Part shown: in pieces, positions 2,287-54,734 of the stretch | Position numbering within the stretch: the first letter of the stretch is position 1 | Layout of the letters: each line of letters opens with the position of its first letter | From: Pelagomonas calceolata | Lineage: Eukaryota | Assembly: GCA_918797485.1 (NCBI GenBank) | Contig: CAKKNE010000002.1 | Coordinates: 5,828,001 to 5,892,000 of the forward strand | DNA length: 64,000 nucleotides | Direction of reading: 5' to 3' | Notes under the pieces: generated by a model | The model's input: the letters and a program-made list of their open reading frames with translations, nothing else | Databases searched by the model: none | What the model was told of the DNA's origin: nothing | Program-made: the position numbers and the translations under genes

Positions 2287-2475
2287 TTGTTTTATTGTGT
2301 ATATCTTTTTGCTGAATAGCAGCTTTGGTCCTTGCTACGTCTGCGTCGATGTCGCAATTGCCTAGGAGGCGCGCGCCCGGGGTGATATGTACACCGTGAC
2401 AACCGTGACAAATTGACAACTGCTGCTTGCTTAAGAGCTAGGCCGCCTAGCTACCCGGCCGCCGCGGGGGCTGCG

Positions 2476-2614
2476 TGACCGAACGCCCGCCCCGCCCCCG
2501 CCCGCGTACGCCGTCGCCCCGAGTGTTGCTTCGGAGGCGACGACGGCGAGGGGGGAGCAGGCCGGACGCCGGAATCCCAGGTCCGCGACGGTGGCGCATC
2601 GGGGGCCGCCGCGG
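2476..2614. repeat. Dispersed repeat, copy 1 (copy 2 at 54735-54880)
   Basis: The 98-bp core 2517-2614 aligns to 54783-54880 with about 5 mismatches, with weaker similarity extending 5'. Confidence 0.9.
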
Positions 2615-3231
2615 GGTAGCGGCGCCCTACCCGGAGGGGACGCGTCCGGGCGCCACGCGCGTTCCGCCTCCGGCCTCCCGTCGCCGAAGCTCGGTGGGCC
2701 CGGGCGCCGCCACCGCGCCCTCGGCCAGGGGCGGTGGCGGCGGCCCGGCCTCGACCGGGGCTCCAACGTCGAATACAGAGGCCGCGGCGACCCGTCGCGG
2801 CTCCCGGGCACGCGGGGGGAATGGGGGCTTGGCCGTGGTCGTGTCGGTCTCGGAGTAGAGGACGCCGCCGGCCGGACGCCGATGAGGAGTAACCTTGGCG
2901 GCCTTGGTGAGCCCGAAGGGGACGCCGTAGCACGCCGAAGAGGAAGCCGACTCTCGCGGAAGAGGCCGCCGCGGCGTCGGGAAGTCGGGGAGGGCGCGAG
3001 GTAGACCAGGAGCCGCCGCAGTTGAGCTCCTCGCCGATCTCCCCTGGATTTGGCGCGCACCAGGGCCGCGAACGATCACGTTGATGCCGCCGAAGCGCCT
3101 GGCGCACCCGCCTTCGGGTGGGCTTTGATCTTGAAGGTGCGACGGTAGGCCGCCGAAGTCCCACATCACCTCCGCGGCGACGCGAGTCGTTTTGCAACCG
3201 CAAATTAAATGCGGACAAAACGCACCTTAGA

Positions 3232-5847
3232 CTAGAGCTCGTCGCCGCACTCGTCGAGGACGAGGTCGTTCGCCGCGACGCACCGCGTGCGGCCCGACTG
3301 CGGCGGCGGCTCGTCCGCGGGCGGCGGCGGCGCCGCCGCGGCTTCGTCCTCGGCGGCGCCGTCGTCGATGACGAGGTCCTCGGCGCCGAAGAACGTCCGT
3401 CGCATTCGTGTTTGCGTCGGTGCGGGCTCGGCGGCGCCGTCGCCGCCCCAGGCGGCCGACGGCGACGCCGCGGGCGCGGGCGCGGCGGGCGCCGGCGCCG
3501 GCGCAGACGCTGGCGCGGCGCCCCCTTCGGCGGCCGGCTCCTTCAAACCTAATGCAGCTAACCGCTCCTCGAACGCGCGCGTCATCGTTTTTTTGAGTTC
3601 ATTTTTGGTCTTCTGCGCCTCCTTGAGCTCCTTGTACTTGTCGTAGCATTCCCGTTTGCTCCGTCCGACGATGCCGCTGATCTGCCGCCACCGCTGCTGC
3701 TTCTCGACGGTCGACGGCACTTCTTTGCAGGCCTTCTTCAGTTTCGTGACGTCCTCTTTGGTCCACGGCTTTGTGTCTTTCTTCGGTCGGGCGGTCTTGG
3801 GCCGGGCGGTCTTTGGCCTAGCTCCATTAGCTATCGACTGCATTTGATCTTTGCTCATGGTGCTGCGGGGCAGCGTGGCGAGGCTCCTTTGGCACATCTT
3901 CGTGTGGGGATGATCGGTGCCGTACGCGCGCGTCCATATCGGAAGAACGCGTTCTAGGAGCTCACGCTTCTTGGACATATCACCGAGGGCGCCGTGAGCG
4001 ACGCCGAGATTGAACAGCGTGATGGCCACTTGCGCGTGGTCGCGGCCGTACGCCCGCTCCTGGATCGCGAGCGCGCGTTCCAGCACGTCTCGCTTCTTCG
4101 CGTGGTCGCCCAAGTCGCCGTACGCGTTCCCGAGGTTTCCCAGCACAGCGGCCACTTGCGGGTGGTCGCGGCCGTACGCCCGCTCGAAGATCGCGAGCGC
4201 CCGCTCCTGCATGTCTTGCTGCTTCGCGGGGTCGTCCAAGTCGCCGTACACGATCCCGAGGTTCCCCAGCGTGGTGGCCACTTTCGTGTGGTCGCGGCCG
4301 TACGCCCGCTCCTCTATCGCGAGCACGCGCTCCAGCATGTCGCGCTGCTTAGCGTAGTCGCCTAAGGCGCCGTACGCGTTCCCAAGGTTCCCCAGCGTGG
4401 TGGCCACTTTCGTGTGGTCGCGGCCGTACGCCCGCTCCTCGATCGCGAGCGCGCGCTCCTGCATGTCGCGCTGCTTAGCGTAGTCGCCTAAGACGCCGTA
4501 CGCGCTCCCGAGGTTCATCAGCGTGCTGGCCACTTTCGTGTGGTCGCGGCCGCACGCCCGCTCCTCGATCGCGAGCGCCCGCTCATACATGCCTCGTGCC
4601 TTGGCGTGGTCGCCTAAATCACCATGAATGTTCCCGAGGTTCGTCAGCACGACGGCCACTTGCGTGCTGTCGCTACCGTACTCGCGCTCGTAGATTGAGA
4701 GCGCGCGTTCGTAGGCGTCGCGTGCCTTGGCGTAGTCGCCGGGGCCATTGTAGGCGCCCCCAAGCTCAAACAGCGCCTCACCCGCCTCCTCGCTCTCCCC
4801 ACCAAACGCGAGCATCTTCTTCACTAAGATTGCTTCCCGGACCTTCACGACGCCCGCGTACTCTGAGATCGACGTGAGCAATTCACAGAGCCCGTCGAGC
4901 AAATTCGCGTCCGCGTCGGACCCGAGCACGTGGTCCACCAACTCATCCACATCGTTCGCCTCGTCGACGGGCAGCTTGCACAGCATCTCGAGCCGCTGCG
5001 CGACGGCATCTGAATTGCCCAAGAAAAACGACCGAAAGTACTCGTAGACCGTGTGGCTCCGGTGCAGCGCTTCCGACTCTTTGATCGGCATGAGATGAAT
5101 TTGCAGCTCGCACATGTGCGACACGTTCTCAACTTTCACGGCGACGTTCATCAAAATATCCTGATAGCCGTTGAAGAGCGGCGGCGCGAACCGGTTCTTC
5201 GTTCGCACGATATCAACGCGGTCATCCGCTTCGAGCGACGCGTAGAGCTGCACGATGGCGTCCTCTGTCTGACAGAGCGCGGCGCCACGCGTAATATCAA
5301 AAAGCCAGCTGTAGCACGGCGCCGTCTTGTCCTTGTACTCGTCTCGCGCCTTGGCGCCGGCGCGGTCGCGGCCCTTCAGCGGCGCGAACATCAGCTTTAC
5401 ACCGCTTTCAGGGCACGCGGCCGTCATAATCTCCTCGAACTGCACGCGCGCCAGCGCGGCGACATCGTACAGCGCGTCGAGCGACGCGGCCGGCTCGCCG
5501 TCGAGCCCGTACTGCCGACACTCGTCTCCTAAATTCTTGCCCACCCACGGGATCTTCTTCACATCGCCCCTGATGTGCTCGCGCGCGATCTCGTCGATCT
5601 GCTCCCGCGCTGCCTTAAACGCCTTTAGGTTGTGAAACATGCACTTCCGCGGGTCGAGCGCGCGTTCGTCGTGCTCCTTGGCGTAGGCCTCTATCGTGGG
5701 CCACGGCACCGTGCGCGTTCCGTCCGGGCCCTCGGTCGCGGCCGCATCGAAGGCTCGCTTCGCCTTGTCGTCGAAGAGGACGCCGACCTCGCTTTTTAGT
5801 TTTACTTCGGTGAGCGGTTTCTTGTCGGTCGACACGTTTGAGCCCAT
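3232..5847 (-). CDS. RelA/SpoT-like nucleotidyltransferase + TPR array + Myb/SANT protein
   Basis: 871-aa ORF starting MGSNVS (myristoylation-like). NTase motifs PLKGRDRAGAK, LFDITRG, KNRF...NGYQDILMNV and CELQIH lie at ~5480-5025. Seven 42-aa TPRs follow, then the Myb-like segment WTKEDVTKLKKA...RWRQISGIVGRSKRECYDKYKEL. Confidence 0.85.
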   Translation of the reverse strand: MGSNVSTDKKPLTEVKLKSEVGVLFDDKAKRAFDAAATEGPDGTRTVPWPTIEAYAKEHDERALDPRKCMFHNLKAFKAAREQIDEIAREHIRGDVKKIPWVGKNLGDECRQYGLDGEPAASLDALYDVAALARVQFEEIMTAACPESGVKLMFAPLKGRDRAGAKARDEYKDKTAPCYSWLFDITRGAALCQTEDAIVQLYASLEADDRVDIVRTKNRFAPPLFNGYQDILMNVAVKVENVSHMCELQIHLMPIKESEALHRSHTVYEYFRSFFLGNSDAVAQRLEMLCKLPVDEANDVDELVDHVLGSDADANLLDGLCELLTSISEYAGVVKVREAILVKKMLAFGGESEEAGEALFELGGAYNGPGDYAKARDAYERALSIYEREYGSDSTQVAVVLTNLGNIHGDLGDHAKARGMYERALAIEERACGRDHTKVASTLMNLGSAYGVLGDYAKQRDMQERALAIEERAYGRDHTKVATTLGNLGNAYGALGDYAKQRDMLERVLAIEERAYGRDHTKVATTLGNLGIVYGDLDDPAKQQDMQERALAIFERAYGRDHPQVAAVLGNLGNAYGDLGDHAKKRDVLERALAIQERAYGRDHAQVAITLFNLGVAHGALGDMSKKRELLERVLPIWTRAYGTDHPHTKMCQRSLATLPRSTMSKDQMQSIANGARPKTARPKTARPKKDTKPWTKEDVTKLKKACKEVPSTVEKQQRWRQISGIVGRSKRECYDKYKELKEAQKTKNELKKTMTRAFEERLAALGLKEPAAEGGAAPASAPAPAPAAPAPAASPSAAWGGDGAAEPAPTQTRMRRTFFGAEDLVIDDGAAEDEAAAAPPPPADEPPPQSGRTRCVAANDLVLDECGDEL
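3925..4806 (-). repeat. Coding tandem repeat, 7 x 126 bp (kinesin-light-chain-type TPR)
   Basis: The motif gtggtcgcggcc recurs at 4036, 4162, 4288, 4414 and 4540, an exact 126-bp period. The protein unit is YGRDHxxVAxxLxNLGxxYGxLGDxAKxRDxxERALAIxERA. Confidence 0.95.
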
Positions 5848-6232
5848 GCTTCACGAGGCTGCCGCACTGCGTTGCAATCGAGGGTCGTTAACGAATTGTT
5901 GGGCAGCGCTCCGGCTCTCGCGTCTCTGCTGGGCAGCGCGTGCCAGTGCGCTGCATCGATGGCGCTCGGATCCTAGTGCCTCTCTCGTCCGGGTATAAAG
6001 CCGCTACAGATCGATCCCCACCTAGAGCTCCGAACACTACCCAACGACCGCTAGGCGGATTTCCGAGGGGGGGCATAGCCAGGCAAAGCTGAGAGAGGGC
6101 CGCTGCGCAAAGGCCAAAACGCCGGCACCATGGGTAGGAGACGCGGCCGCCGGCGGGCAATGAAAGCGCAGTGATCGCAACGAAAGCACATAGCTGCCCC
6201 GGCGACGAGTGATCGAAACCGAAGCACATAGC

Positions 6233-9200
6233 ATGAGGCAGCTGTGGGCAGCAGCCCTTGTCGCGACGGCGGCGGCCTTCGAGCTCGCGAGCTTCACCTA
6301 TTCCGCGGGCGAGGGCCTCATCACGCTGACCTTCGACGAGGCCGTGCAGTCGCGGACGCTCAACGCCAGCGGCATCGTGCTTATGTCGAACGCGACGGCG
6401 GAGCGCGCGCCCATGCAGCGGTTTAGGTTAAGGGGCGCGCACCCGACGCTGGGCCAGTTCTTGTATACGACGCCCTACAACACGACGGAGACGCTGACGC
6501 TCGTCATGCGCGACGACGATTTACTGGAAGTCCAGGCCTTGTCCGATCTGGCCGTCGACGCGAAGTCGGTCTGGCTCGTCGCGGAAGAAGGTCTAGCAAG
6601 GGCCGTGTCGGACAACGACCGCAGCGCTGCGATTACCAAACCGCTGGAGGTCGATACGTACGTGCCCGATACGTTACAGAGCGAGATGGAGCTGTATACC
6701 ATCGACATGCACGAGGGCTTGATCTGCTTCAAGTTTTTGGAGCCGGTGGATCGGTCCTCGCTGGACCTGTCGGGAGTCATTCTCCAGACGGACGTTAATG
6801 TGTTAGACGTGGACACCGGATATGAGTGTCGCAACGTCGACCAGGACTCGTGCGTGCAGTTGACACTGGTCAATGAGGAGTCGAAATTACTGGACATCCC
6901 CTGCAAGCCCACGAACGTGTCCTCGACGAATAATGACAGCGTCACGACGTGGTCCGTGGTATGCCTCAACACGACGACGGTCGAGGATTCGCTCTGGCTG
7001 AATGTGTCACTAGGTCCAAAAAACTTGAACGCCATCAAGGCGGCCTACCCGCTCGGCTCGCAAGCGCATCTGACGAATCTCGCGTTATCTTCACCCATAG
7101 CCAATGATAGGGGAGGCAACGCGTTCCTGACCATCAGTCTGCGGCCCGAGATGGCGTTAACGCCAGAAAGCTGGATCGGCGACCAGAATCGGCCCATTCT
7201 CGTCTCATTCGCGGTGGACATGGACTCGGGTCAAATTGATTTAACCTTTAACGAGACGGTGAACGCGAACGAACTGGATGTCACTTGTGTCTCATTGCAC
7301 GAGACGCGGGACAACCGGACGGGCGGGTTGTTCCACTACCTAAGGTCGTATGGGCCCCAAGGGGCGCGGACGAAGGGTAGCCTTGTGTCGACTGGTGACG
7401 GTCCCACGCTGATTATACAGATGTCGCGCGAGGATTCGGATGAGATCAAACGCAAGCCGAGACTACTCACGGGCAGAGATACGTCTTTCGTAGCGTTGGA
7501 CTGCGACGAGACGTATCGAGACAACGCCTTCCCCGTGAATTTCGGGATACGACGCTCGCGCGTCGATGCGTTACAGGCCGAGGTCTTTGTCCCGGACACC
7601 ACGCGACCGGTCCTAACGTCCGCATCCCTGGATCTGGACGTCAAAATTCTCACGTTAGAGTTCGACGAGACGGTCAACGCCTCTTCACTCATCGTCGACT
7701 ACCTACAAGTGCAGTCGACCGAACGAGACTTGAGTTACACGGAAAGAGTGCAGTTGGAGTCCTACGTCACGGCCGGCGACATCAGGCACGACCGGATGTC
7801 TAGACGAGGCTCGGGACGAATCAGCCCGGCGGGCTCGAACGTTTCCATTGCTATTGGTGATAGGGACTTTGCCGCGATGAAGCTCGCGACGACTTTCGGG
7901 AGTGACGCGACGTCGACCTTCGTCGCTGCCCTAGGCGGCGCGGTCCTCGACATGAACGGCAACAAGCTCACGGAAGTGCCGCTGTCAAAAGCGGTCGCCG
8001 CGACGAATGGCGTCTTTCGCGACAACCAGCCACCTTCGCTCGCGAGCTTCGCGCTGGATCTGGATTCGGGGGTCTTCGCGTTGCAGTTCGACGAGCCCGT
8101 GACACGAGCGTCACTCGATATGACGAAGTGCACGCTGGCCGCGGCCGACAACGAAGACTCCGAGAGGGTTTTATTTACGAACACGCACGAGTTCCTTGAA
8201 AGTACAGATATCGATGCGCGGCGCGTTCGAAACTTACTCAGGCTGGACTTCGACCCCGTGACGGATGGCATGGGTTCGGAAGTGCTGTATGTCAAACTCA
8301 GTCAAAAGGACCTAAACAACCTAAAAATCGCCGAAACGCTAGCGGTCGACATCCAATCGACGAAGTGGCTCAGCGAATTGGGATGGGTTGCAGATAGTGT
8401 CACCGCGAACCCGTCGCCCTCCGTGACGTACGAGACCGCAAGAAACTTTTCAACGGACGTGACGTCTCCCCTGTTAACGGGCGGCACCGTCGACTTAGAT
8501 GCCGCGATCTTAACGTTGCAGGCGGACGAGCCCGTGCGCGGTGCCAGTGCGAACGCTTCGTACTTCCGTATTAGTTCAAGAGCGGACGGCTCGGGGCACA
8601 CCGTGGACGTCGACGCCGACACTCTACTGTCGCCAGACGCGAAAGATGCGACCTCACTGAATTTCAGACTGGACTGCTTTACACTAGATCAACTAAAGTT
8701 GTGGGGCCCGCACCAGGCCTTCCTGAGCCACCAGCCTTTCCGCTATGAATACGGAGGCGGTCTGACGGACATGTACGGCAACACTCTGGCTGTCGTGAAT
8801 GGTTCTAAAAACACGTCACTCCCAGCTACCGTCGTCGCCGACTTCACGTCCCCTTCGCTCATTGGTTTTGACTTCGGCGCGAACATCACGTTGAGGTTCG
8901 ACGAGCCCGTCGATCCCGTCTCGTTGCGGGACATGGACGAAAGTTGGTACCTCCAGAAACGAGCCGATAGTATGTCGGGCTTCCAGTCCATTAGGATCGC
9001 GTCTCATACGACACCGTCTCGCACCTTAGAAGCCGGCGTCGGGCGCTACGCGATGGCTCTCATCGATGCGGACACGCAGTTCGGCACGCAGCCCGCGGAT
9101 ACGTTCTTGCGACCGGTCGTGGCCGCGGCAGCTTTGGATATCGCCGGGAACCCGCTCGAGAGCATACCTGATGGCTCCGCGTTGCAGCTCGGGCCTCGAG

Positions 9201-12200
9201 TGTTATCTTTTGAGCTCGACATGGATGCGGGAGTTTTAGTGTTACAGTTCTCGGAGCCCATTGACACGACGACGTTCGACGCGTCCAAATTTGGTTTACA
9301 AGCTCAAAGCTCAGTATTAGCGCTGACGGAGACGTTATCGCTGAGCGCGGGAACGTCGATCGAACATCGCACGGGGCCCTGCGAGCCTTCAGCCAAATTA
9401 ACTTTGACGGAAGATGATGTCGAAGATCTGCGATTCATGACCGCGTTAACACGAGGCACCGGTCAAACGTACCTCACGGCACTAGCAGATGCCGCGGTCG
9501 ACAAAGATGTCGCCCCATACCTCGAAGCCAATGCTCTCATCCAAATACCCACGTCGAAAGGACTAGTCGCCGCCAACGTCTACCCCGACGAAACGCAGCC
9601 CAAGTTCATGAATTGTGAATTAGATATGGACTCGAACCTACTCACGCTAAAATTCGACGAGCCGGTGCGAGCGTTGTCCTTCGATCCTGCAAGGGTGGAA
9701 TTGCGGGATGCGCATGCGACGGAGAACAAGACGGAGTTCGTTGTGTTATCATCCGGCTCGACATCGTCCACAGATGCTTATCATTTACGGGTCGAGCTAG
9801 GAGAAAGGGATGTGTTCGCGATCAAGTCGCGGCCGCCGTTAGGACAGACTCGCAATTCAACCTACTGTGGCGTGCGATCGGGCACGGTGCTGGACTGCGG
9901 CGCTGGTACGACAGAAGAAGGCAACAGGAACGTCGCTGGAACAAGGCAAGCAATGAAAGTATTGCCTGACGTGACGCCGCCGGACTTGAAGAAGTTCGAC
10001 ATGGACTTGGATGCGAACGCCTTGGTCTTGACCTTCGACGAGCCCGTCAATGTGTCCTCCATCGATCCGACGGTAAGAGACGTGTACCTCCACGCGGGAC
10101 CCGAAGAAGATGATGCGTATGTGACGCTGGGGTGTTCCAAGATCGAGCCGTCGACACTCACCTGGAACGCGACGGTGTCCATACTCTTATGTCAACGGGA
10201 CTTCAACGCGATATTTGCGACGCCCGCGCTCTGCCGCCGGACGGACTCGTGCTACATGTCCCATGTTTTTGGTTTGGCTGCTGACAGTGCGAAGCCGCCG
10301 AACGAAGCCCGAGCACGCTCACTAGACTACGCTTTACAAGCCTCAGCTATATTGCCAGATGTCACACCCCCAATTGTGACGTCCTTTGGTCTGGATATGG
10401 ACCAGGGCCTACTCAGTTTCGAGTTTGATGAAGTGGTCCACTTGCCCTCCTTCGACGTGTCGACGATCACGCTACAATCCGCGCGGTTCAACGACTTCGT
10501 CGGGAGTAGAACGTTATCCGCAGATAACGGCACGGAGTGTTTTTATGAGGAGGTGAACGCGACCTACGCCTCCGTACGGTTAGGCCGAGACGACCTGGAT
10601 GCCGTCAAAGCCTTGGCCGGTGTAGGACTCGCTCTGGACGCGGAAACGACATTTTTGTCGCATGAGGTCGGTCTCGTGCAAGACGTGTCGGGCAACCCAT
10701 CTGATGAACTCCAGTCCTACAAGGGCATGGGGCCCGCCAACAACTTCACACGTGACAGTACACCGCCCAAACTACTCAGTTTACAAAAGATCAGTATGAC
10801 GAAGAAGATACTGTATGCGATCTTCGACGAGCCCGTAGACCATGAGGGATTCAATAGATCCCACTGGTTCTTATCGAGAACGCAGACGGGCGGTCATTAT
10901 TCGTTGGGGGACGATCCTACCGTCGAAGTCATCGATCCTTTCACGGAGGAAGACGGGGGCGTGTTAGCCGACGATAAAGCCCCATACTCGTCGATCCTAG
11001 CGTTGCGGTTGGGCGACGCCTACGACGGCATGCCCGTCGCGGACCAGCCCGTGACCTTCTTGGCGCTGGACGACTGGGCCGTCAGTGACACGGCGCTCAA
11101 GAAGCAGAATCCACTGGTCGGGGACGAGCAGTACGCTTCGATCTATCATCCGGGCACGGGTGGGCGACGAGCGACGATGCTCGGGCCCCAATTGGAGGCC
11201 TTTGCGTTGGATATGAACGCCCTTAGTCTCACTTTACAATTCACGTCGCCTATCCTCGCAAACCATACGTCACTAGATTTATCGAAGTTCACGCTGCAAG
11301 CGGCTTCTGACGCCACAAAGGAGTATGAGACGGGCGTCCCGACCGCTTCCGTGACACTGTCGTCTTCGTCAAAAGCCTATGCTGCTGTTAAATTACCAAG
11401 GACCGAAGCGAAACTCCTCAAATCGCAGTTGCTGGATGCGCCGGAGTATCCCTTGGACTCCGACGGTGACGTCGCGGTGAGGTGCTCATTATCACAGGAC
11501 GACGCCTGGAAGCTCCAACGAGCGTCGCAGTTGCTGGCCAAGCATGCCTCGAAAACATATGCGTCGATCACCTCATCATTGGGTGGGTCGGACTCCGACT
11601 CGTCCCTCGTGGGTGATCCTACGTATCTCGTTTCAGTCCCAACGGATCGGGGCACGTCACTCGACGAGGACGCCTTCCGACGAGATTCTACAAGACCTTC
11701 TTTGACCCAATATGCTTTGGATTTAGATGGTGGTATTCTGGAGCTCGAGTTCGACGAACCGGTCGTGGGCGAGACGATGAACGTCTCGGCCATCACGCTG
11801 AAGACGGCGCAGACGTGGCCGTACGAATCTGTGACACTGTCAGCCAATAGTAGGGTCGTAAAGACGGACCCCGGCGGAAGGTACGACCAGTGCGGCGATA
11901 GTGCGGGAAACAGGTCGAAGGCCTGCGACTACGCGCGTATTTTGCTCCATGCGAATGATTTTGATCGGGTCCGAGCCGCGAGAGCCGGGGAATGGCTCGA
12001 TATAAGTAGAAAGGCCGCCGAGGACGCCTTCGGGAACAACGTGAATGTACTTTCTGAAAGTACATCATTGGGCGTGGGCACGTTCACCAAGGACGCTACC
12101 CCTCCACAATTGACGTCCTTTCTGTTGGACATTGACGGCGACGGCAAATTACATTTGAATTTCAGTGAACCGGTGGACCCGACGTCCTGGGACGTCTCCA

Positions 12201-15200
12201 AAGTTGAATTACGATCCACGTCGGGAGCTACCGATTTGAGTGATGGGAAGGCCTACCAGCTCACCCAGGCTTCGTCGTCGCAGACGGCCGGCGTGACCAC
12301 TTTGGAGTTGCGATTGGGCGGCGACTTAGTCGCGTTGAAGCGCGCCATCGCCGGCGAGGGCATCGGTTCTATTGGTGCCGCACCTTCATCAACCTTTCTG
12401 GCGGCGTCCAGTGGCTACGTGACGGACTTGGCGTTCCCCGGAAACCCGAACGACGCCGCCCCCGTGCAGATGGCGGCGTCGTCGACGGTCAACGACTTGA
12501 CGGGTCCGAGGCTCGCCTCCTTCGAGCTCAACTTGGAGGACGGGACCCTCGAACTGTTCTTCAACGAACCGATCCGCGTCGCCCTATCAGGCACGGCCGA
12601 GTTCAACGCGTCTTCCTTGATATTAAGGTCGGACGATATGGTGGCACCAGTACGATTAACGACGGCAGCGTCCGGTGCGGCCATGGTGTTTGATTGCCAG
12701 GCTCGCGTGAATCTGAGCACGGCGGACAAAAATGCGTTATCAGCAGCGAAGATCGGTGGTGACTACGGCGCACAGTTGCAACATCTCGGCGGGGTCCTGA
12801 AGGACGTGGTCGGAGGCAACGATGCCTTGGTAGGGTGCGGGCCGCCCGGCGGCGTCAAGGGCGACGGCTCGTTCAACTTCGAGAACGGCCGTTCAGGACT
12901 GGGCGAAGCGTCCGCACTCCCGGAGGGGCCCGTGCCCGTGGAACAGATTCTGGATCTGGAGGCGGGGACCCTCAAGATCTCGTTCTTCCACGACGTGCGG
13001 ATGAGCAAGCAAGTGAACGTGACCGCGGTGACCGTCGCCGCCGCCGACGAAGCGGACGCTTTTTCCTATCGCCTGACCGGAGGCACCTATGCCGTAGATG
13101 CGGCGTATGACGGCGCCGGCGAGGCGATTATTACCCTTACTTTATCGAAGGAGGATATCGACGGTATTAAGTTGGCCGATGCCAAACCTGGCATCATGCC
13201 CCTCGCGACGTCTGTCAGTACAACCATCGTCGGCTTAGACTCATCCTTCATCTGGTCGTCGACGGGGAAGCAAAACGTGCCGCGACTACCGGGGGATACG
13301 CTGATCGGCGGCGTGCCTTGTCGAACCATCACGACGGATAGTACGCGACCTACCGTGTCGTCCTACGCTCTGGACATGGATGCTGGCACATTAACACTAC
13401 AGTGGGACGAGCCGGTCCGAGCGTCCGAAAGTGTCGTGACACTCGTGGAAGTGAGAAAATCTGCTTCCGCTTCCCTGGATATCATGACCCTGACCTCGAC
13501 GACAAGGCCCAAGGAGGGCGGCGCATCTTCAAAAGTCACGTTCCTCCTATCGAGGGAGGATCTCGATGAATTGAAGCGGATAGACGGCTTGGCTTCGAAC
13601 CAAAGTACCTCGTACATCTACTTTCCCGCCTTTACGTTCCTCGATAGGAGTGTGGAGGAGAATACCGCTGCAGCAACGATAAGTCAGGTTTCGACGTATG
13701 TGGCCGACACGACCGTACCTAACTTGGACGGCTACACGCTAGATATCGAAGCTAGAACGCTCACCTTACACTTCAACGAACCTGTTATTATATCGAGTTT
13801 CAACGCGTCGTGCATCCAACTCCAGGAAGACCTGAAGAGTACGGATGGGCAGTACCATAGGTTGGTCGATTCCTACGCGGTCGACACGTCGTTGCACGAT
13901 TCGAGTGCGGTGGCAGACCTCGAAATTGCTTTTAGTGATTACGACTACGACACGATCAACGGTCTCAGCCGCCTAGCAAAAGTAGAAAGCGCCGTGAGGA
14001 TGACGATGGACTCCTGCGCGGCATTGGACGTGGCGGGCAACAAGGTCGACCCCATCATCGACCGGGCCGCGCGATCGTCCATAGCCTTTCGGCCCGATGC
14101 GACGAATCCCGAGCTTTTGAGATTTACTATTGATATGGACGAGGGTACTGTTACGATGAACTTTACCGAGCCCGTATTCTACGGGTACGTCGACGCGACG
14201 AAGTTTACCTTACATTCCGCCGATGAAGGTGGTACTTCTGTAACGTTGTCGGAGGCTACTACCCAAAAGACGCTCGATTCATTAAGTTCTTTTTATTACT
14301 ACGATGGTAGAGCAGAGGAAGGTAGGGTCGACTACTACGGCTATGGTGGCGAGTTAACCTTGGTGTTGCACTCCGACGACCTGGACGCCATCAAAGCGTC
14401 AGATATTGCGGTAGATGCGTCGTCCACGTACCTAACGGCGCAAGCGGGCGGCGTCGGCGACATGACCGGAAATACGCTGGATCCTACTTTATTAAGAAAA
14501 CCTTCGGCGTCGTACCTGCCCGACGTGACGCCGCCTACTTTATCTTCCTTTGATCTAGACTTGGATGAGGGTTTGTTGCATATAGAATTTGGGGAGTCAG
14601 TAGACGAGGACACGCTCGACTTGTCCAAAATCCTACTGACGCCGGACGGCTACGCCTGGGAGGTGGGCACGAACAAGGAGAAGGGCACGAATCTCGTGGG
14701 CGGCGCGAAGCGCACGGAGTTCGCCGCGCAAGGTGTTGACGTCGATCGGGGCAATGGGACGTTGAGTGCGCAGGTCTACGTGGACTTGGGCGAAACGAAT
14801 CTCGACGCCTTGAAAGTCGCGGGCGTCGGTGTGGATGGCACAGCTTACCTCTCGGCGGACGAGGGCGCTATCTATGACATGGCGTCCTTACCTCTCGTGC
14901 GTGTCAGTACGGCCGACTTCGAGGGCGGCAACCCCGTGAAAGCTAGACTATTAACAAAGGACGTGACCGGTCCTTCTTTATTAAGAGCTAATTTTGCCGG
15001 AGACGACCTGGTGCTAGACTTCGACGAGCCCGTGGTCGTGTCCGACGCGATACCGCGCTTGGTCTCGATTGTGGATGAGGACGGCGAGGGCGACCCGCTG
15101 GACGCTCTCGTCCCTGTCTCCGGAGCAAGGCGCGGGAGGAACGCCAAGCGACGCGTTATTTTGGATTTGAAGGATAGGTGCTCGGCGGACGAGGTCTGTC

Positions 15201-15928
15201 GCATCAAGATCCTACAGAACGCGACCAATACCACAGAAGCGAACACGACGCTGGTCTGCACGCAGCCCGCCTGCGACGTCGAGAAGGCGTTCGAGATATC
15301 ACAACGGTCGGATTTGTATGTTACAGTAGGTGCGGGCTTCGTCCGCGACCACTTCGGAAATCCCAGCGAAGGCAACACGGGCCTGAAGGAGCGGGACCCC
15401 GTCTGTGACTGTAAGAGCGGGACCTTCGTGCAAACGCCGTGCACGGACCGCATCGACGTCATGTGTTCCGAGTGTTCTACGGAGTGTCCCGCGGGGCAAT
15501 ATAAAGTGTCAGAGTGCGACACGCACTCGGATATCGGGTGTTTACCTTGTAGAAGTTGCCAGACGCCGTACTTCGTGGACGGCGGGTGTGCCGGTTCGAC
15601 GGACACGATCTGCTCGGAATGCACGCCCTGCGGTCCCTTGGAGTACGAAGTTTCACCGTGCACGGCGGGCATCAACCGCGTCTGTAAATCCTGCGAAGAT
15701 AACAGCGAGTGCATTGAAGTCACGCCGGTGTGTGAAAACACGCCCGCGAAGTGGTGGCGCAAGATGAACTGCTGCTACGACAACGACGGCGTCCAGCTGC
15801 CGTGCAACCAAATCACGGAGGCGAACACGCGCATCTCGAAGCGCAACTCGCGCGAGCACTGGGTCTTCGGCCGGACCGTGCCGCAGGTCGAGGACGGCTT
15901 CGCGCTCGGCGACGCGTCGACGAGCTAA
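6233..15928 (+). CDS. Giant secreted repeat protein (~3230 aa): ~22 beta-rich Ig-like repeats plus C-terminal TNFR-like Cys-rich repeats
   Basis: Uninterrupted 9.7-kb ORF. ATG 6233 gives signal peptide MRQLWAAALVATAAA. I count 22 copies of DxTxPxLxSFxLDxDxGxLxLxFDEPV. The C-terminus reads CDCKSGTFVQTPC...CSECSTECPAGQY...C. No TM helix is visible. Confidence 0.9.
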   Translation: MRQLWAAALVATAAAFELASFTYSAGEGLITLTFDEAVQSRTLNASGIVLMSNATAERAPMQRFRLRGAHPTLGQFLYTTPYNTTETLTLVMRDDDLLEVQALSDLAVDAKSVWLVAEEGLARAVSDNDRSAAITKPLEVDTYVPDTLQSEMELYTIDMHEGLICFKFLEPVDRSSLDLSGVILQTDVNVLDVDTGYECRNVDQDSCVQLTLVNEESKLLDIPCKPTNVSSTNNDSVTTWSVVCLNTTTVEDSLWLNVSLGPKNLNAIKAAYPLGSQAHLTNLALSSPIANDRGGNAFLTISLRPEMALTPESWIGDQNRPILVSFAVDMDSGQIDLTFNETVNANELDVTCVSLHETRDNRTGGLFHYLRSYGPQGARTKGSLVSTGDGPTLIIQMSREDSDEIKRKPRLLTGRDTSFVALDCDETYRDNAFPVNFGIRRSRVDALQAEVFVPDTTRPVLTSASLDLDVKILTLEFDETVNASSLIVDYLQVQSTERDLSYTERVQLESYVTAGDIRHDRMSRRGSGRISPAGSNVSIAIGDRDFAAMKLATTFGSDATSTFVAALGGAVLDMNGNKLTEVPLSKAVAATNGVFRDNQPPSLASFALDLDSGVFALQFDEPVTRASLDMTKCTLAAADNEDSERVLFTNTHEFLESTDIDARRVRNLLRLDFDPVTDGMGSEVLYVKLSQKDLNNLKIAETLAVDIQSTKWLSELGWVADSVTANPSPSVTYETARNFSTDVTSPLLTGGTVDLDAAILTLQADEPVRGASANASYFRISSRADGSGHTVDVDADTLLSPDAKDATSLNFRLDCFTLDQLKLWGPHQAFLSHQPFRYEYGGGLTDMYGNTLAVVNGSKNTSLPATVVADFTSPSLIGFDFGANITLRFDEPVDPVSLRDMDESWYLQKRADSMSGFQSIRIASHTTPSRTLEAGVGRYAMALIDADTQFGTQPADTFLRPVVAAAALDIAGNPLESIPDGSALQLGPRVLSFELDMDAGVLVLQFSEPIDTTTFDASKFGLQAQSSVLALTETLSLSAGTSIEHRTGPCEPSAKLTLTEDDVEDLRFMTALTRGTGQTYLTALADAAVDKDVAPYLEANALIQIPTSKGLVAANVYPDETQPKFMNCELDMDSNLLTLKFDEPVRALSFDPARVELRDAHATENKTEFVVLSSGSTSSTDAYHLRVELGERDVFAIKSRPPLGQTRNSTYCGVRSGTVLDCGAGTTEEGNRNVAGTRQAMKVLPDVTPPDLKKFDMDLDANALVLTFDEPVNVSSIDPTVRDVYLHAGPEEDDAYVTLGCSKIEPSTLTWNATVSILLCQRDFNAIFATPALCRRTDSCYMSHVFGLAADSAKPPNEARARSLDYALQASAILPDVTPPIVTSFGLDMDQGLLSFEFDEVVHLPSFDVSTITLQSARFNDFVGSRTLSADNGTECFYEEVNATYASVRLGRDDLDAVKALAGVGLALDAETTFLSHEVGLVQDVSGNPSDELQSYKGMGPANNFTRDSTPPKLLSLQKISMTKKILYAIFDEPVDHEGFNRSHWFLSRTQTGGHYSLGDDPTVEVIDPFTEEDGGVLADDKAPYSSILALRLGDAYDGMPVADQPVTFLALDDWAVSDTALKKQNPLVGDEQYASIYHPGTGGRRATMLGPQLEAFALDMNALSLTLQFTSPILANHTSLDLSKFTLQAASDATKEYETGVPTASVTLSSSSKAYAAVKLPRTEAKLLKSQLLDAPEYPLDSDGDVAVRCSLSQDDAWKLQRASQLLAKHASKTYASITSSLGGSDSDSSLVGDPTYLVSVPTDRGTSLDEDAFRRDSTRPSLTQYALDLDGGILELEFDEPVVGETMNVSAITLKTAQTWPYESVTLSANSRVVKTDPGGRYDQCGDSAGNRSKACDYARILLHANDFDRVRAARAGEWLDISRKAAEDAFGNNVNVLSESTSLGVGTFTKDATPPQLTSFLLDIDGDGKLHLNFSEPVDPTSWDVSKVELRSTSGATDLSDGKAYQLTQASSSQTAGVTTLELRLGGDLVALKRAIAGEGIGSIGAAPSSTFLAASSGYVTDLAFPGNPNDAAPVQMAASSTVNDLTGPRLASFELNLEDGTLELFFNEPIRVALSGTAEFNASSLILRSDDMVAPVRLTTAASGAAMVFDCQARVNLSTADKNALSAAKIGGDYGAQLQHLGGVLKDVVGGNDALVGCGPPGGVKGDGSFNFENGRSGLGEASALPEGPVPVEQILDLEAGTLKISFFHDVRMSKQVNVTAVTVAAADEADAFSYRLTGGTYAVDAAYDGAGEAIITLTLSKEDIDGIKLADAKPGIMPLATSVSTTIVGLDSSFIWSSTGKQNVPRLPGDTLIGGVPCRTITTDSTRPTVSSYALDMDAGTLTLQWDEPVRASESVVTLVEVRKSASASLDIMTLTSTTRPKEGGASSKVTFLLSREDLDELKRIDGLASNQSTSYIYFPAFTFLDRSVEENTAAATISQVSTYVADTTVPNLDGYTLDIEARTLTLHFNEPVIISSFNASCIQLQEDLKSTDGQYHRLVDSYAVDTSLHDSSAVADLEIAFSDYDYDTINGLSRLAKVESAVRMTMDSCAALDVAGNKVDPIIDRAARSSIAFRPDATNPELLRFTIDMDEGTVTMNFTEPVFYGYVDATKFTLHSADEGGTSVTLSEATTQKTLDSLSSFYYYDGRAEEGRVDYYGYGGELTLVLHSDDLDAIKASDIAVDASSTYLTAQAGGVGDMTGNTLDPTLLRKPSASYLPDVTPPTLSSFDLDLDEGLLHIEFGESVDEDTLDLSKILLTPDGYAWEVGTNKEKGTNLVGGAKRTEFAAQGVDVDRGNGTLSAQVYVDLGETNLDALKVAGVGVDGTAYLSADEGAIYDMASLPLVRVSTADFEGGNPVKARLLTKDVTGPSLLRANFAGDDLVLDFDEPVVVSDAIPRLVSIVDEDGEGDPLDALVPVSGARRGRNAKRRVILDLKDRCSADEVCRIKILQNATNTTEANTTLVCTQPACDVEKAFEISQRSDLYVTVGAGFVRDHFGNPSEGNTGLKERDPVCDCKSGTFVQTPCTDRIDVMCSECSTECPAGQYKVSECDTHSDIGCLPCRSCQTPYFVDGGCAGSTDTICSECTPCGPLEYEVSPCTAGINRVCKSCEDNSECIEVTPVCENTPAKWWRKMNCCYDNDGVQLPCNQITEANTRISKRNSREHWVFGRTVPQVEDGFALGDASTS

Positions 15929-33619: not shown

Positions 33620-36600
33620 TCAAGTCGGGGCATCAAGTCGCGGGGCGGGCGCGGGCGCCACTACTGGCCTCGTACTCGTGCGAGTCCAGGAAAGAAATGA
33701 CGGCAGGGACATCAGGGACGGTCGGCGCGCGACCTCCGCGTGCCGGCCCGGCCGCACCGCGGTCGGCGCCTCGACGTCGCCGCCGTCGTCGGCCGCCTCG
33801 GGCGCGGTATCGACAGCAGTCTTCTTGCCGCTGAAGGATGCGTAGTTCGAGGCGCGCGCGATGGAGTAGAGGCGGTGCGACGCTTTTTGCTTGTCGTAGA
33901 TGGCCTTCGGGACAATCTGCACCTCGACGATCAGCGGGGCGAGGCCCGGCGGGGCTGGCGGCTGGAACGCGAGGTTGACGAGCAAGTTGAACGGCTTTAC
34001 GCGCCCCGCGAGCTTGTTCTTGAGGCGGACGACCTTGAAAATGTCATCTTTCGCGAGCGCTTCGTACGCCGCGACAACCTGCTCCGCTCCGGCGACGACC
34101 ACGGAGGCTCGGAGGCAGTCGCCCAGCTTTTCCGCGCGCGGCCAGGGCTTGGCCTCGCGGCGATATTCGTCGACCTTGGCGCGCATGCGCGTCTTCTTTT
34201 TAATGGCGACGTCCGCGGCACACTCGAGCTCGACGCCCTCCGTGCCCGGGGGAAAGAGCTTCTCCAGCGCTTTTTTGAAGGCGGGAAACGCGGCGTTCGC
34301 CAGGTCGTGGAGCGCGCCGACGCAGACGCTCGCGTCGAGCTCGGACTCGAGCGCGGCGCCGCCCACCTTATCCTTGAAGGCGACGAGCTCGGCGCTCCGC
34401 AGCGCCGGCTGGTCCGTCCCGTTGTCGAAAGACTTGAGCGCGACGACGTCGGCGCCCCGGGGCTCGTCGAGGACCTTGGCTGCTGCCTCCGCGATGCGCG
34501 CCTGGGCCTGCTGGTTCAGGTCGTGCGCGATGAGCGCCAGGTCCACGAACCGCTCGAGGCGCCGCGGCTCCCGCGCGGATGCGAAGGCGCGGACAATTTG
34601 GATCTTCGTCGCCGCCCGCCGGAACTTCGCCAGGCCCGAGGCGAGATTTTCCTCGCGCGTCGGCGCGACGTCGTCGGGATCCGACGCCTCCCGCAGCAGC
34701 GAGCGTGCCGAGGACACTCCGGACGACGAGCGCGACAAGCTGAACGAAGACGGCGACGTCGGCGACTTGGGGGGCGAATGCAAGTTGGCGAGAGAGGTCG
34801 ATATTTGGTCAGACTTGTTCCTCGCCAGGGCCGCCAGGTGGAGCACGGGGTTCTCTTTCCGCGAATGCCATAGCTTCTGCGGGTGCTGGTCGTCGAGTTC
34901 GAAGAAGGGCTTCAGCACCTCGGCGTAGACGCGCAGGAGGGTGATCGGGGCGCCGCCCGGTGGCTGCGCGCGCCGGAGCCGCTCGAAGGCCGCGGTCGGG
35001 CTCAGGCACTCTTCCGTCAGTGTCGCGGCGAGCGGACCGGCGACGATATCCACGGACCGCTCGACGGCGCCGGCGTCGATGGCACCGTCCCCGCCCGCCT
35101 TCTTCGCGCGGGCGAGCATCGACTCCACGTGCCACTGCAGCACCTCCTCGGCGTGCACCTCGGGCGCCCAGACGCCCTCGAGCGCCAGCAGCGTCCCGGT
35201 GAAGTACGTCCAGGACTCGTCCCTGAGCTTGCCGTCGAACGCCTCCCTGAGAATTTGCCTCGACCTCTTGCGGACGTCCTCGCGGATCGCCTCCGCGTGC
35301 GCGCTCCGCAGCAGCTCCTCGACCTCCTCGGCCTCGACGGGCTCGTGCGCCTGGAGCCGCCGGGCGACGCCCCGGTAGCTCTCCGACACGAACGCCTGGT
35401 AGGCGAGGGGGAGCGAGGCCACGTTCAGCAGGAAGACGAGCGTGACCATCCATAACGCGTCTTTGCTGTCCTCGATCAAGTCGCCGACCAGGCAGACCGA
35501 GAGCAGCACGATCGAGAGCGCGAACCGCATCAGCGCCTCGACGACGTGCTGCAGGCCCGACGACGCGTAGGGTTTCAGCTGCAGCACGAACGTCCGGTGG
35601 ATGATCGTGACGATGAGGCAGAGCACGATGGAGATCTTGACGTCCGCCTTGAACCGGAAGAACCCCGTCACGAGCGACCGCAGGAAGATGGCTAGGACCT
35701 CGAACCACCAGTACTCCGCCTTGAGGTTATTCGTCAGAAACGCCAGCGCGCCGTCATCGACGTGGCGCGGGTCCTTGCGCTGCTCCTCCCCCCCGGCGGC
35801 GAGCCGGCGCGGCCGCCACAGCACGAGGAACAGGCACAGCGGAAACGTGACGTAGATCACCGCGCAGACAATCGCGTACGCCTTGTGGGCCTCGTAGCCC
35901 GGCCCGGAGCACCGGATGCTGTAGTCGCTGACCAGGAATTTGCGGTCGAAGGGTTCGTACTTCACGGTGCAGTTGAATATCTGGAAGATGGCGCAGCAGA
36001 TGGCGCTGTGGAACAGGCTGATCAGCAGCATCCACTTGGAGAGCACGCCGCCCAGGTCCTGGCGCACGGCCGCTGCGACTCTCCGATGGAGCGGGACGGC
36101 CTCCGCCGCCGCGCCTTCTTCCGCGAGGGCGTTCTGCGGTGCCGCGGGAGCGCCGCACGCCACGACGCGCGCGACCGCGCGGACGACGGCACAAACGATG
36201 AAGACGAGCAGTAAGGCCGGTGCCCCAAGCGTCGCCAACATCAGGAAATGGAAATAGTTGTACGTTCTGTAGCACTGCGCGATGCTGTGAAGCGACGACA
36301 GGTCGAACGTGAAGACGTCGAGGGCGCGCATGACCAATTGGGAAAATCCTGGAAGGGGAACTTGGTGGATGGAGACGAAGCGCGACATCGTCATGGCGAA
36401 GTAGACAAACTGGATCAGCACCGCTTCGAACCACTGGCGGTTGAAGCGGCTCCGGAGCCGCCGTATGCCGAGGATGACGAGCGCCCACGCGACGATCATC
36501 AGCAGGACAGTTAAAAGTTGTTTCATTTGCTCGCCGATCCTGTCGCAGCGTACGCACTCGGACACTGCTTTGAGATCCTCCTTGGTTTTGCTATTGCGAA

Positions 36601-39600: not shown

Positions 39601-39667
39601 CAAAGTAGCCGAGGCGCACCACCTCCGCCGACGCCGCCGCCGCGAGCGTCCATAACAGGCTGTTCAT
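33620..39667 (-). CDS. Multidomain receptor: TauA-like solute-binding domain, CUB/EGF repeats, Cys-rich region, ~9 TM, RelA/SpoT-like nucleotidyltransferase
   Basis: ATG 39667 gives signal MNSLLWTLAAAASA. Removing a probable in-frame GC-AG intron 39121-38933 leaves ~1950 aa. TauA-like: ASGGFVVSKLDEGDLEVALLGSTP, PFGSTAHY, GTIDGAFVW, WGKPTF. CUB: YSNNLACEWRI, YPNSAECHF. EGF: CTCDAGYGGADC. C-terminal KKKTRMRAK, LGDCLRA, RLKNK, IVEVQI. Confidence 0.85.
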   Translation of the reverse strand: MNSLLWTLAAAASAEVVRLGYFGEAQPFQVACARGWFDFSDVEVACLPQASGGFVVSKLDEGDLEVALLGSTPAAFAVARGVDIKHLYVAHEKGSSQGLLVRPEIQSPPDLDGRTFGTPFGSTAHYHMMYIQTLFPDVRFDIIDLNGLNPLDLYDAGTIDGAFVWGGWIDGLVQRNATMLFPARGGARIKFHGTFMRVDSVRMARSDGWTPSTRVHRHQERERRENERWHRRRNTARGRLTKNKQAQVLSDWGKPTFNTISARADFAARRPDVLERVAGVIARLDADYLDDASTRWGAGAGGFVADVAAAYGASASPTQAELDTAAAGLSYFSFVSPDTMQGPDYLGGGIAAALKATARFHLETNTVAAVAPAGTVDEDAFYAATTSAQSLADGLASIPASVLDTAGTGVTSIPESADSTCSGTVDLTATTGTLTDGATTSYSNNLACEWRIASGGVVELTFTVFRVWTGDFVEVFDGSTLVAKLHGFDRAWPPLRTTGDMTVKFTTDGVTERAFNYLLTDGWSASYDAEALVCAADHSTCGNGKCDAASGLCTCDAGYGGADCSLATCLGTTTLTGPTGEFRSSPTAPDRDEPYPNSAECHFVADVGTSFGYVSFTVTYDVEPTFDFVSVNSGDVTWARLSGEDTATILVPTTDGKASLVFTSDSRGRRGGFSATYVAKSVTCASNADCGGHGTCDDGGTCVCDTGYGGLACTVPHCLDGAPKVTGESMVMVSQAPGEPVPAAADCTWEFQAAAGRSVRVVVETLDLEPYRSAAKEGDMVVIRSTGATDIELTSTSFQKSYDIASSGISVSLETDRNDVGETYTGLAATAYAVDACPVVGGECEEQGFTCEPTSGLQGPGCYDGGRAVGCACDLTGCPEGSFFDESTGGCEACRPGTFKSATGPTPCEPCPKNFYAPESGAAMCCRQGWVLVDGFCRQCGQNVGAYVLKGARCNAANGTTVATLEVKEHFFRFSPESTSVYRCPEDDDACRGSSPGLEGYGNGLCKTHAHGPLCMLCRSGYFRNSKTKEDLKAVSECVRCDRIGEQMKQLLTVLLMIVAWALVILGIRRLRSRFNRQWFEAVLIQFVYFAMTMSRFVSIHQVPLPGFSQLVMRALDVFTFDLSSLHSIAQCYRTYNYFHFLMLATLGAPALLLVFIVCAVVRAVARVVACGAPAAPQNALAEEGAAAEAVPLHRRVAAAVRQDLGGVLSKWMLLISLFHSAICCAIFQIFNCTVKYEPFDRKFLVSDYSIRCSGPGYEAHKAYAIVCAVIYVTFPLCLFLVLWRPRRLAAGGEEQRKDPRHVDDGALAFLTNNLKAEYWWFEVLAIFLRSLVTGFFRFKADVKISIVLCLIVTIIHRTFVLQLKPYASSGLQHVVEALMRFALSIVLLSVCLVGDLIEDSKDALWMVTLVFLLNVASLPLAYQAFVSESYRGVARRLQAHEPVEAEEVEELLRSAHAEAIREDVRKRSRQILREAFDGKLRDESWTYFTGTLLALEGVWAPEVHAEEVLQWHVESMLARAKKAGGDGAIDAGAVERSVDIVAGPLAATLTEECLSPTAAFERLRRAQPPGGAPITLLRVYAEVLKPFFELDDQHPQKLWHSRKENPVLHLAALARNKSDQISTSLANLHSPPKSPTSPSSFSLSRSSSGVSSARSLLREASDPDDVAPTREENLASGLAKFRRAATKIQIVRAFASAREPRRLERFVDLALIAHDLNQQAQARIAEAAAKVLDEPRGADVVALKSFDNGTDQPALRSAELVAFKDKVGGAALESELDASVCVGALHDLANAAFPAFKKALEKLFPPGTEGVELECAADVAIKKKTRMRAKVDEYRREAKPWPRAEKLGDCLRASVVVAGAEQVVAAYEALAKDDIFKVVRLKNKLAGRVKPFNLLVNLAFQPPAPPGLAPLIVEVQIVPKAIYDKQKASHRLYSIARASNYASFSGKKTAVDTAPEAADDGGDVEAPTAVRPGRHAEVARRPSLMSLPSFLSWTRTSTRPVVAPAPAPRLDAPT

Positions 39668-40018
39668 GGTCTGCCCATGGGGCTGCTCTTGTCCGTTGCC
39701 GCTCGGGCAGCCTCCGAGTGCTCGGAAGTGGGCCTCGTCGAGGCCACGTCCGGACGCTTGGTCGCGAGAACGCCTTGCAACGCCTTGCTCGCAATCAAAT
39801 GGGCTGTTCGCGCTGCACAGGATTTTGCCGCACAAGTTCCTGTGCGGGATTATTCGAAACCTGCCCGCGCGAGGGATATACGGCCTGCGGCTAGAGAGGT
39901 CTCGACTTTAAAGTGCTAGTGTCTTTCTCAGCTAGGCTGTGCTTTGGTTTGAACGCGGAGGCTGCCTCTCTCTACGAACGCCGCAGCCATCTGAGCTCGA
40001 TCGATCCGTGAATATAAG

Positions 40019-54603: not shown

Positions 54604-54734
54604 GCCTCGGACAACATTGCTGCTGTTTTCCCTCCGTCGTCTTACCCCCGTTCATAAATGATGAATAGTGAATTCGTTCTTCCGCGACTGCCCCGCCTTT
54701 GCGGCGATGGCGTCGAGCCGTGTTGCTTAGAGCT

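Follow-up and report, generated by a model that had tools for sequence, protein, structure and literature searches.

A RelV-type candidate alarmone synthetase joined to a hypervariable TPR array in the pelagophyte Pelagomonas calceolata: a possible one-piece non-self sensor

The 64,000-nucleotide stretch of Pelagomonas calceolata DNA analysed here (the window), which is eukaryotic and rich in G+C, contains an 871-residue open reading frame (ORF) that joins a RelA/SpoT-type synthetase domain to an array of tetratricopeptide repeats (TPRs) (Table 1). By sequence, the enzyme groups with the exported synthetases of bacteria, namely RelV/VpEAS and effectors of extracellular contractile injection systems (eCIS) and type VI secretion systems (T6SS), and is not closest to the long RelA/SpoT homologues (RSHs). 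We propose, with a confidence that stops just short of even, that the protein is a likely cytosol-facing, probably myristoylated sensor of non-self, gated by its TPRs and making (p)ppGpp when a target binds. The first-pass annotation of this DNA had noted an MG start, the motifs Syn1 to Syn4 in their proper order and seven TPRs, all of which are borne out by the sequence and by repeat analysis; it had overlooked that another gene supplied the final quarter of the ORF (the SANT tail).

Table 1. Features of the synthetase–TPR gene and of the receptor-like ORF, in window coordinates
Feature	Position	Strand	Basis or remark
Whole ORF, 871 residues	3232..5847	-	Myristoylation-type start, helical N-domain, alarmone-synthetase domain, TPR array, captured SANT tail
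N-terminal MGSNVS, predicted N-myristoylation site	5827..5847	-	Sequence
Helical N-terminal region, residues 14-91	5575..5808	-	Model secondary structure; outside the 104-288 span of most structural matches
RelA/SpoT-type synthetase (SYNTH) domain, residues ~110-290	4978..5520	-	RelV/exported-synthetase type
Syn1, K158-x3-R162-x3-K166	5350..5385	-	K 128, R 127, K 129 of 129 relatives; aligns with Tas1 and RelV-like proteins
Syn2, D184-x-x-R187, in FDITR; predicted metal-binding Asp	5287..5298	-	D 127, R 129 of 129 relatives
Syn3 acceptor loop, K217-N-R-F..P..G-Y228-Q-D230 (NGY 226-228)	5158..5199	-	G[YF][RQ]D in 112/129 relatives
Syn4, E247-L-Q249-I-H251; predicted catalytic Glu	5095..5109	-	E 124/125, Q 120/124
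Seven 42-residue kinesin-light-chain-type TPRs (349-642) and capping helix (643-656)	3880..4803	-	Hypervariable positions
Displaced copy of a separate SANT-domain gene (codon ~17 to ~27 nt past its stop)	3208..3879	-	In-frame fusion; SANT domain 3619-3771
Receptor-like ORF	33620-39835	-	Probable ATG near 39667; seven hydrophobic segments
Divergent synthetase domain copy, C-terminus of receptor-like ORF	33851..34330	-	BLASTP E 2e-5; family HMM E 2e-18

The Rel-type fold that had been anticipated from the motifs is supported by an AlphaFold2 model of residues 1–345, built from 43 sequences (pLDDT 87.5, pTM 0.77). Foldseek retrieves small alarmone synthetases (SASs) first, with RelP and RelQ on top (E 3e-6 to RelP), and VIA superposes the model on RelP with Z 14.3 and an rmsd of 3.6 over 159 residues, followed by RelQ (13.7), CapRel (13.2), Tas1 (12.5), the long RSHs (7.4–11.4) and Pol X (~7); in the Atlas, the TM score to a PF04607 cluster is 0.65. 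Residues 279–344 of the model are helices only. Of 1.84 billion representatives searched, 1,141 clusters match the family at E≤0.001, a number that drops to 437 at 1e-10, and both counts cover all organisms, algal or not; the relatives analysed are the best 150 of these 1,141 clusters, and 129 of them cover the enzyme domain. All ten core residues (K158, R162, K166, D184, R187, K217, Y/F228, E247, Q249 and H265) are present in 101 of the 124 relatives that cover them, and D184 and E247 are both kept in 122 of the 125 diverse relatives that cover both positions. Among TPR-bearing rows picked with a repeat hidden Markov model (HMM) (n=44), the corresponding figures are 34/42 and 41/42. The catalytic Asp and Glu lie in register with those of RelP, Tas1 and RelV-like proteins in profile alignments. 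This pattern of conservation is the one that an active enzyme family would show. The reaction expected is the transfer of pyrophosphate, so that the term nucleotidyltransferase used at first fits the fold and not the reaction. No HD hydrolase domain was found in the protein by Pfam or motif scan, as had been claimed, and neither were NACHT and NB-ARC (Pfam) or a Walker A motif (motif scan). Searching the PDB with the single sequence returned nothing meaningful, NCBIfam has no family for the enzyme domain and the sole PADLOC match was a TPR model.

The nearest bacterial sequences are of the RelV/VpEAS type by HMM scoring, HHalign and tree. With the enzyme domain of the window as query, we retrieved a Photobacterium protein (E 6e-7) and a gene of Bordetella phage PHB04 (E 3e-4), and a family profile matched 25 of the 401 genomes of one proteobacterial phylum sample. 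In 9/401 genomes, the matches were proteins of 257–268 residues (E 1e-25 to 5e-32), long RSHs reaching only 6e-7 to 4e-4; by eye, these short proteins resemble the Vibrio sequences of the RelV/VpEAS cluster in supplement file 5 of PMC12691689 (excerpt). Aligned against a RelV-like profile with HHalign, the family gave a probability of 99.7 (E 2e-25). Since profile A3 contained the bacterial-looking protein P0159, which might have inflated the RelV scores, we also made an HMM from the TPR-bearing rows alone, and the ranking was unchanged: TPR-less effector-like proteins (DUF4157, PAAR) scored 82–108 bits, RelV-like proteins 76–89, the phage PHB04 protein 71, a Tas1-like effector 22 and bacterial long RSHs 13–19. 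In a tree of 38 rows (LG+G4; P0002, P0203, P0204, L020 and most long RSHs were left out), the 20 TPR-bearing rows form one clade (support 99/98), adjoined by a group made up of RelV and effector-like proteins (95/91). The algal enzyme may plausibly have been acquired from a bacterial exported effector by transfer, the tree being without the outgroups needed to show it. P0159 itself has no TPRs and carries two RelV-type synthetase domains in tandem.

The acceptor loop bears on the product. Across the 129 relatives, Syn2 is of the DxxR type in 122 and of the DxxGxR type in one, and the acceptor loop, GYQD in the P. calceolata protein, never takes the canonical form GY[RQ]SxH or the Apk-type form (0 each). 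VpEAS/RelV and AaEAS, which have a K[ND]RF..P..GYRD loop, make (p)ppGpp (excerpt of PMC12691689), whereas Apk1 and MuF-type sequences carry a GY[SK]G.N loop, as read from the supplement sequences of the same excerpt, and Apk1 and Apk2 make (p)ppApp (excerpt of PMC10083569). Because the algal loop matches that of VpEAS/RelV and AaEAS and not that of Apk1/Apk2, (p)ppGpp is the favoured product, as predicted from sequence, with (p)ppApp second; the first-pass annotation had named both, alongside another nucleotide signal or the modification of a target. Residue Q229 is compatible with a guanine loop, RelSeq also having Q there. A Tas1-like (p)ppApp enzyme had been our first reading, and was demoted by the RelV-like matches and the loop comparison. 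A protein with the same sensor–effector logic that makes (p)ppApp, or both alarmones, and kills the cell through a drain of ATP/ADP, like Apk1/Tas1, is nevertheless the alternative that survives best, although we consider it unlikely: the Syn1 pattern, the DxxR motif and the C-terminal helix motif (H265-x2-Y-E-x2-R272) are also those of Tas1; SaEAS and Tde-SAS make both nucleotides; and ATP drain would be a fitting effect in the cytosol of a eukaryote, where no ppGpp receptors are known, but the absence of the Apk-type loop from the relatives and the low score of the Tas1-like effector relative to RelV-like proteins argue against it.

Some viral proteins resemble the enzyme. Bordetella phage PHB04 (L008, 2586–4851) encodes, in order, a portal protein, a 493-residue protein with a RelV-type synthetase, a 70-residue ORF and an HD hydrolase, a layout of the phage toxin–immunity cassette type, with no MuF match in Pfam. 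A scan of the bacterial genomes with the PHB04 protein gave one 15-residue match, and no close relative was found in the viral contigs. Searching a viral structure library with the model of residues 1–345 brought up large RelA/SpoT proteins of phages at E 2e-8 and one of Fadolivirus at E 1e-3; a mavirus protein matched only weakly (E 8e-3).

The TPR array is far less conserved than the enzyme. Identity to the 10 closest relatives is 92–97% for the enzyme but falls to 55–68% for the TPR region; even the best-matching single repeat units of these relatives have only 28–36 of 42 residues in common with those of the window, and the repeat count varies from 4 to 7. Units 3–6 of the window are 83–93% identical to one another in DNA, and reads that step back by 126 nt (20 in X21, 4 in X24) show copies with other repeat counts. 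The 33 internal repeat units of the 10 closest relatives are all distinct (33/33), with 20/42 positions nearly fixed and the variation concentrated at unit positions 2, 5, 6, 9, 12, 16, 20, 24, 27 and 38. At these 10 positions, which were picked from other proteins with the query left out, units 3–6 of the window differ more at non-synonymous than at synonymous sites (pN 0.34 vs pS 0.18), the reverse of the situation elsewhere in the units (pN 0.06 vs pS 0.16), and 0/5000 random position sets reach the pN of the variable positions. The TPR variation is thus site-specific diversification, short of formal positive selection because the six pairs formed by the four repeats are few and not independent. 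Similar length polymorphism and variable sites have been described for the TPRs of fungal NLRs, modelled on kinesin light chain (excerpt of PMC4986451), and for the Ectocarpus NB-ARC–TPR genes with their 126-nt TPR exons (excerpt of PMC3341825). The description of the protein as NLR-like therefore stands for the repeats, with their length polymorphism and variable sites, and fails for the NTPase, no NACHT or NB-ARC having been found.

The mechanism that we propose is as follows: (i) as long as no target is bound, the TPRs would keep enzyme activity low, by analogy with the autoinhibition of Treponema Tde-SAS; (ii) this target would likely be foreign, i.e. a viral, parasite or bacterial protein; (iii) the freed domain would transfer pyrophosphate from ATP to GTP/GDP, yielding (p)ppGpp; (iv) the probably myristoylated N-terminus would tether the protein to a membrane; and (v) the outcome would be nucleotide drain together with growth arrest or death of the challenged cell.

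Several observations weigh against this proposal. As regards the product, the canonical His of GYRSxH is replaced throughout the family, the protein has L232 where RelV-like proteins have Asn (N in 57/127 relatives), SaEAS, which belongs to the same clade as the exported synthetases, is promiscuous and makes both alarmones (excerpt of PMC12691689), and the rule that links loop to product is based on few characterised enzymes. As regards the kinship of the enzyme, Pfam RelA_SpoT (PF04607) misses the query at E 0.1 (the relative P0118 reaches 27.5 bits against a cut-off of 27), the fold leaves the substrate open, RelP/RelQ scoring best with CapRel and Tas1 close behind, and the joint branch of the TPR clade and RelV/EAS, at 90/74, is not strong in a tree without RelP/RelQ, DsRel, plastid RSH or fungal sequences, in which proteobacterial long RSHs serve as the outgroup. 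As regards the sensor, the pN/pS comparison draws on non-independent pairs, there is no NOD switch in the protein, the ORF is expressed without known challenge (in one sample with raw RNA reads) and an MG start is found in only 21/150 members of the wider family.

If the TPRs were adaptors rather than pathogen sensors, then the enzyme would be an active synthetase engaged in ordinary signalling or stress control, and the variation would stem from repeat instability. Expression without known challenge speaks for such a role, which would also be in line with the relatives that carry C1, FYVE, EF-hand, WWE, PUB or kinase domains and with the copy found on a seven-transmembrane (7TM) receptor. What makes it rather improbable in our view is that amino-acid change clusters at the same few positions across proteins, which synonymous change does not, a clustering also reported for candidate immune receptors of fungi and Ectocarpus (excerpts of PMC4986451 and PMC3341825).

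The acceptor might also be other than a free nucleotide: the domain might pyrophosphorylate the 3' end of an RNA, as CapRel/FaRel2 do on tRNA, or some other acceptor, and block translation. The Z score of CapRel lies within ~1 of the best match and the canonical guanine-contacting His is absent, with GY[RQ]SxH in none of the 129 relatives. Against this, those characterised enzymes that are closest in sequence use nucleotides as acceptors, and no tRNA-modifying enzyme is found among the 18 PDB sequences matched by the family profile; we give this alternative a small chance.

Comparison with known systems helps to situate the (p)ppGpp-making TPR-gated sensor that we favour. The P. calceolata enzyme has in common with the RelV/VpEAS and Apk1-homologous exported synthetases (excerpt of PMC12691689) the motifs DxxR, K-x3-R-x3-K, K[ND]RF..P..GYRD, E-x-Q-x-H and H-x2-Y-E. 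However, the latter are bacterial and bear a signal peptide, PAAR, DUF4157, WXG or MuF, whereas the former is nuclear-encoded, algal and fused to TPRs, with no export signal or Pfam secretion domain found. By export criteria it is therefore not an exported alarmone synthetase (EAS), and it is the enzyme that is likened to EAS enzymes, by sequence. DsRel/SAS-TPR proteins, such as Treponema denticola Tde-SAS (PMC10434055), likewise combine an N-terminal synthetase and C-terminal TPRs without a hydrolase, and in Tde-SAS the TPR domain works as a brake (PMC10434055). They differ by their RelP/RelQ-like catalytic domain and four conserved 34-residue TPRs, as described in PMC10434055, as opposed to a RelV-type enzyme and a variable number of 42-residue hypervariable TPRs, so that the two fusions are probably independent, DsRel being compared by description only. 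The fungal RelA_SpoT NLRs (excerpt of PMC4986451) also place an alarmone-synthetase effector domain on a eukaryotic candidate immune receptor, and 42-residue KLC-type TPRs with length polymorphism and variable sites also occur in the group formed by fungal NLRs and the Ectocarpus NB-ARC–TPR receptors (excerpt of PMC3341825). Unlike NLRs, the P. calceolata protein has no NACHT/NB-ARC and its sensor is joined directly to the enzyme (the comparison concerns architecture and not the kinship of the enzyme domains); the fungal RelA_SpoT NLRs listed have NACHT with WD40 or unannotated repeats (excerpt of PMC4986451). The (p)ppApp toxins Apk1/Tas1 and Apk2 (excerpt of PMC10083569) belong to the same broad clade and have Syn1, DxxR and the C-terminal helix motif, but differ by their acceptor loop, their much lower HMM score and the fact that they are secreted or phage-borne with immunity proteins. 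Finally, diatoms and other algae have plastid RSH1/RSH4 (PMC6881373, PMC10107265), which are algal nuclear genes with a synthetase domain too, but are long, with an HD domain and plastid targeting; HMM scoring covered the bacterial long RSHs only.

The family has named members in P. calceolata, Aureococcus anophagefferens (where a single locus-tag series holds 6 paralogues), Triparma and Cylindrotheca, most others being metagenome proteins. TPRs are present in 49/50 close relatives, and Pfam TPR_12 in 78/87 scanned representatives (mostly the longer ones of the 150); the repeat HMM is narrower than Pfam and recognised 44/130 rows. COR-A, FYVE, WWE, PUB, LNR, C1, MSP, EF-hand or kinase domains are added in members P0141, P0175, P0189, P0177, P0170, P0085, P0071, P0194 and P0171. 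The modular family suggested at the outset is supported, with varied added domains and one copy on a 7TM receptor. The unplaced divergent SASs listed for Thalassiosira and Phaeodactylum (excerpt of PMC3153485) may be members, and the hydrolase-only RSH listed for Aureococcus in the same excerpt could act as an off-switch.

The gene is transcribed. In one sample, polyA RNA reads extend from ~3570 to 5965 on the strand expected for the ORF, opposite to the read direction of the plus-strand neighbour; no GT-AG joint for the ORF is listed among the RNA read joints and no intron was seen. Part of the signal comes from paralogues, 250/572 and 298/842 of the RNA reads being only 95–99% alike. UniRef contains a P. 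calceolata protein that is 99% identical across the enzyme domain and shares its N-terminus, and the automatic label 'RelA/SpoT domain-containing' is attached to P. calceolata proteins 98–99% identical to the query. A myristoylation-type start is found in 35/50 close relatives and is typical of the pelagophyte subgroup, to which this part of the original description is best confined; N-myristoylation of the 871-residue protein is probable from its sequence. No hydrophobic signal was detected among residues 1–60, where hydropathy over 19 residues is at most −0.03, and a hydropathy and motif scan, used in place of a dedicated targeting predictor, gave no sign of plastid targeting, in agreement with the early claim.

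The SANT tail corresponds to residues 657–871 (Pfam Myb, E 1.4e-4) and is foreign to the family, since it is found in none of the 221 other proteins compared. At six of seven metagenome loci (L001–L006), a stand-alone SANT gene has its own 16-residue start; the seventh (L007, 301–2007) is a distant fusion with a related SANT domain, whose partner looks, by its motif, like a MINDY-type deubiquitinase. The upstream DNA common to four of the stand-alone loci differs from that of the window, and neither enzyme nor TPRs lie near the SANT gene in 7/7 loci. Contigs from three samples, X1, X3 and X8 (one of which may be the window's source), bridge the junction at 3879 without differences. Raw RNA depth carries over it, from 37 to 21 and from 48 to 40, while 5 and 9 reads, respectively, turn off there to the native SANT start. 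The fusion is therefore genuine and is transcribed, and the donor gene exists in intact form as well. Below ~3560, in a very G+C-rich stretch, RNA and DNA coverage both fail, and the 3' end of the transcript is unseen. In this single copy, the tail is a recent and accidental addition, probably a dispensable one. That the family is active and the window copy a decaying chimera spoiled by the captured piece is the least probable of the alternatives. In its favour, none of the other proteins compared has the tail, the flank 2430–3230 is pieced together from a high-copy repeat and a duplicated fragment, and RNA depth collapses below ~3560. Against it, the reading frame is uninterrupted and retains all ten core residues, transcription runs through the junction, and the loss of depth hits DNA contigs as well.

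In the adjacent flank, every RNA read over 2816–3074 differs from the window at fixed sites (53/53 at 2869) and stops matching at 3074; it seems that the expressed gene lies elsewhere and that its duplicate in the window is silent. The high-copy repeat (~2440–2620), whose summed contig depth in X1 is ~50x that of the flank, borders the captured gene pieces and has a second copy in the window at 54732–54886 (86% identity). On the other side, head-to-head with the 871-residue ORF, a plus-strand gene (6209–15928) encodes a 3239-residue protein whose start is signal-like and which has weak Ig-like repeats and, at its C-terminus, TNFR-type Cys-rich repeats; coverage of its 5' end is ~20-fold in X24 and 3-fold in X21.

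A second copy of the enzyme domain, reported earlier in the receptor at 33.6–39.8 kb, is indeed there, but without the GY[R]D loop, which is replaced by PFN. A family HMM built without the receptor matched it alone, apart from the synthetase–TPR protein, among the 1187 ORF segments of the window. Pfam finds in the receptor a periplasmic-binding-type NMT1-like domain, three CUB domains, and EGF and ephrin-receptor-like repeats. The lysines and arginine of Syn1 are retained in the synthetase domain of the receptor, as are DxxR, E-x-Q and the His/Tyr helix; it is a divergent subfamily whose activity is less certain, and its single-sequence model is unusable (pLDDT 43.9). Possibly, the receptor is a 7TM-coupled nucleotide signalling enzyme with the domain on the cytoplasmic side.

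More broadly, and quite tentatively, a bacterial exported-effector synthetase may have given rise in ochrophytes (pelagophytes, bolidophytes and diatoms) to numerous related one-piece immune receptors, in which hypervariable TPRs would switch cytosolic alarmone synthesis without a NOD and which would also be wired to 7TM receptors, giving an extraplastidic (p)ppGpp/(p)ppApp system of defence and signalling. The parts are known: bacterial SAS-TPR proteins (DsRel), fungal NLR RelA_SpoT effectors, RelA-like polymorphic toxins (excerpt of PMC3482391) and the UniRef domain label. We found no description of this algal family in the papers searched, which were in part judged by title or opening of the abstract among the matches listed, most subscription papers lying outside the search: the excerpt of the diatom RSH paper PMC6881373 has no mention of TPR or RelV, SpoT, ppGpp and TPR are all absent from the main text of two pelagophyte genome preprints, and five algal genera looked for in the six supplements of PMC12691689 do not appear there. 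The excerpt of a bacterial NLR preprint contributed nothing specific.

In conclusion, the family adds a new eukaryotic form, equipped with an immune-receptor-like sensor, to a class of enzymes already known, and provides many intact, expressed candidate synthetases free of plastid signals in abundant marine algae. To our knowledge, little is known of antiviral or antibacterial defence in phytoplankton. If the TPRs do sense pathogens, then these proteins would constitute a NOD-less class of immune receptors and offer a route into that defence.

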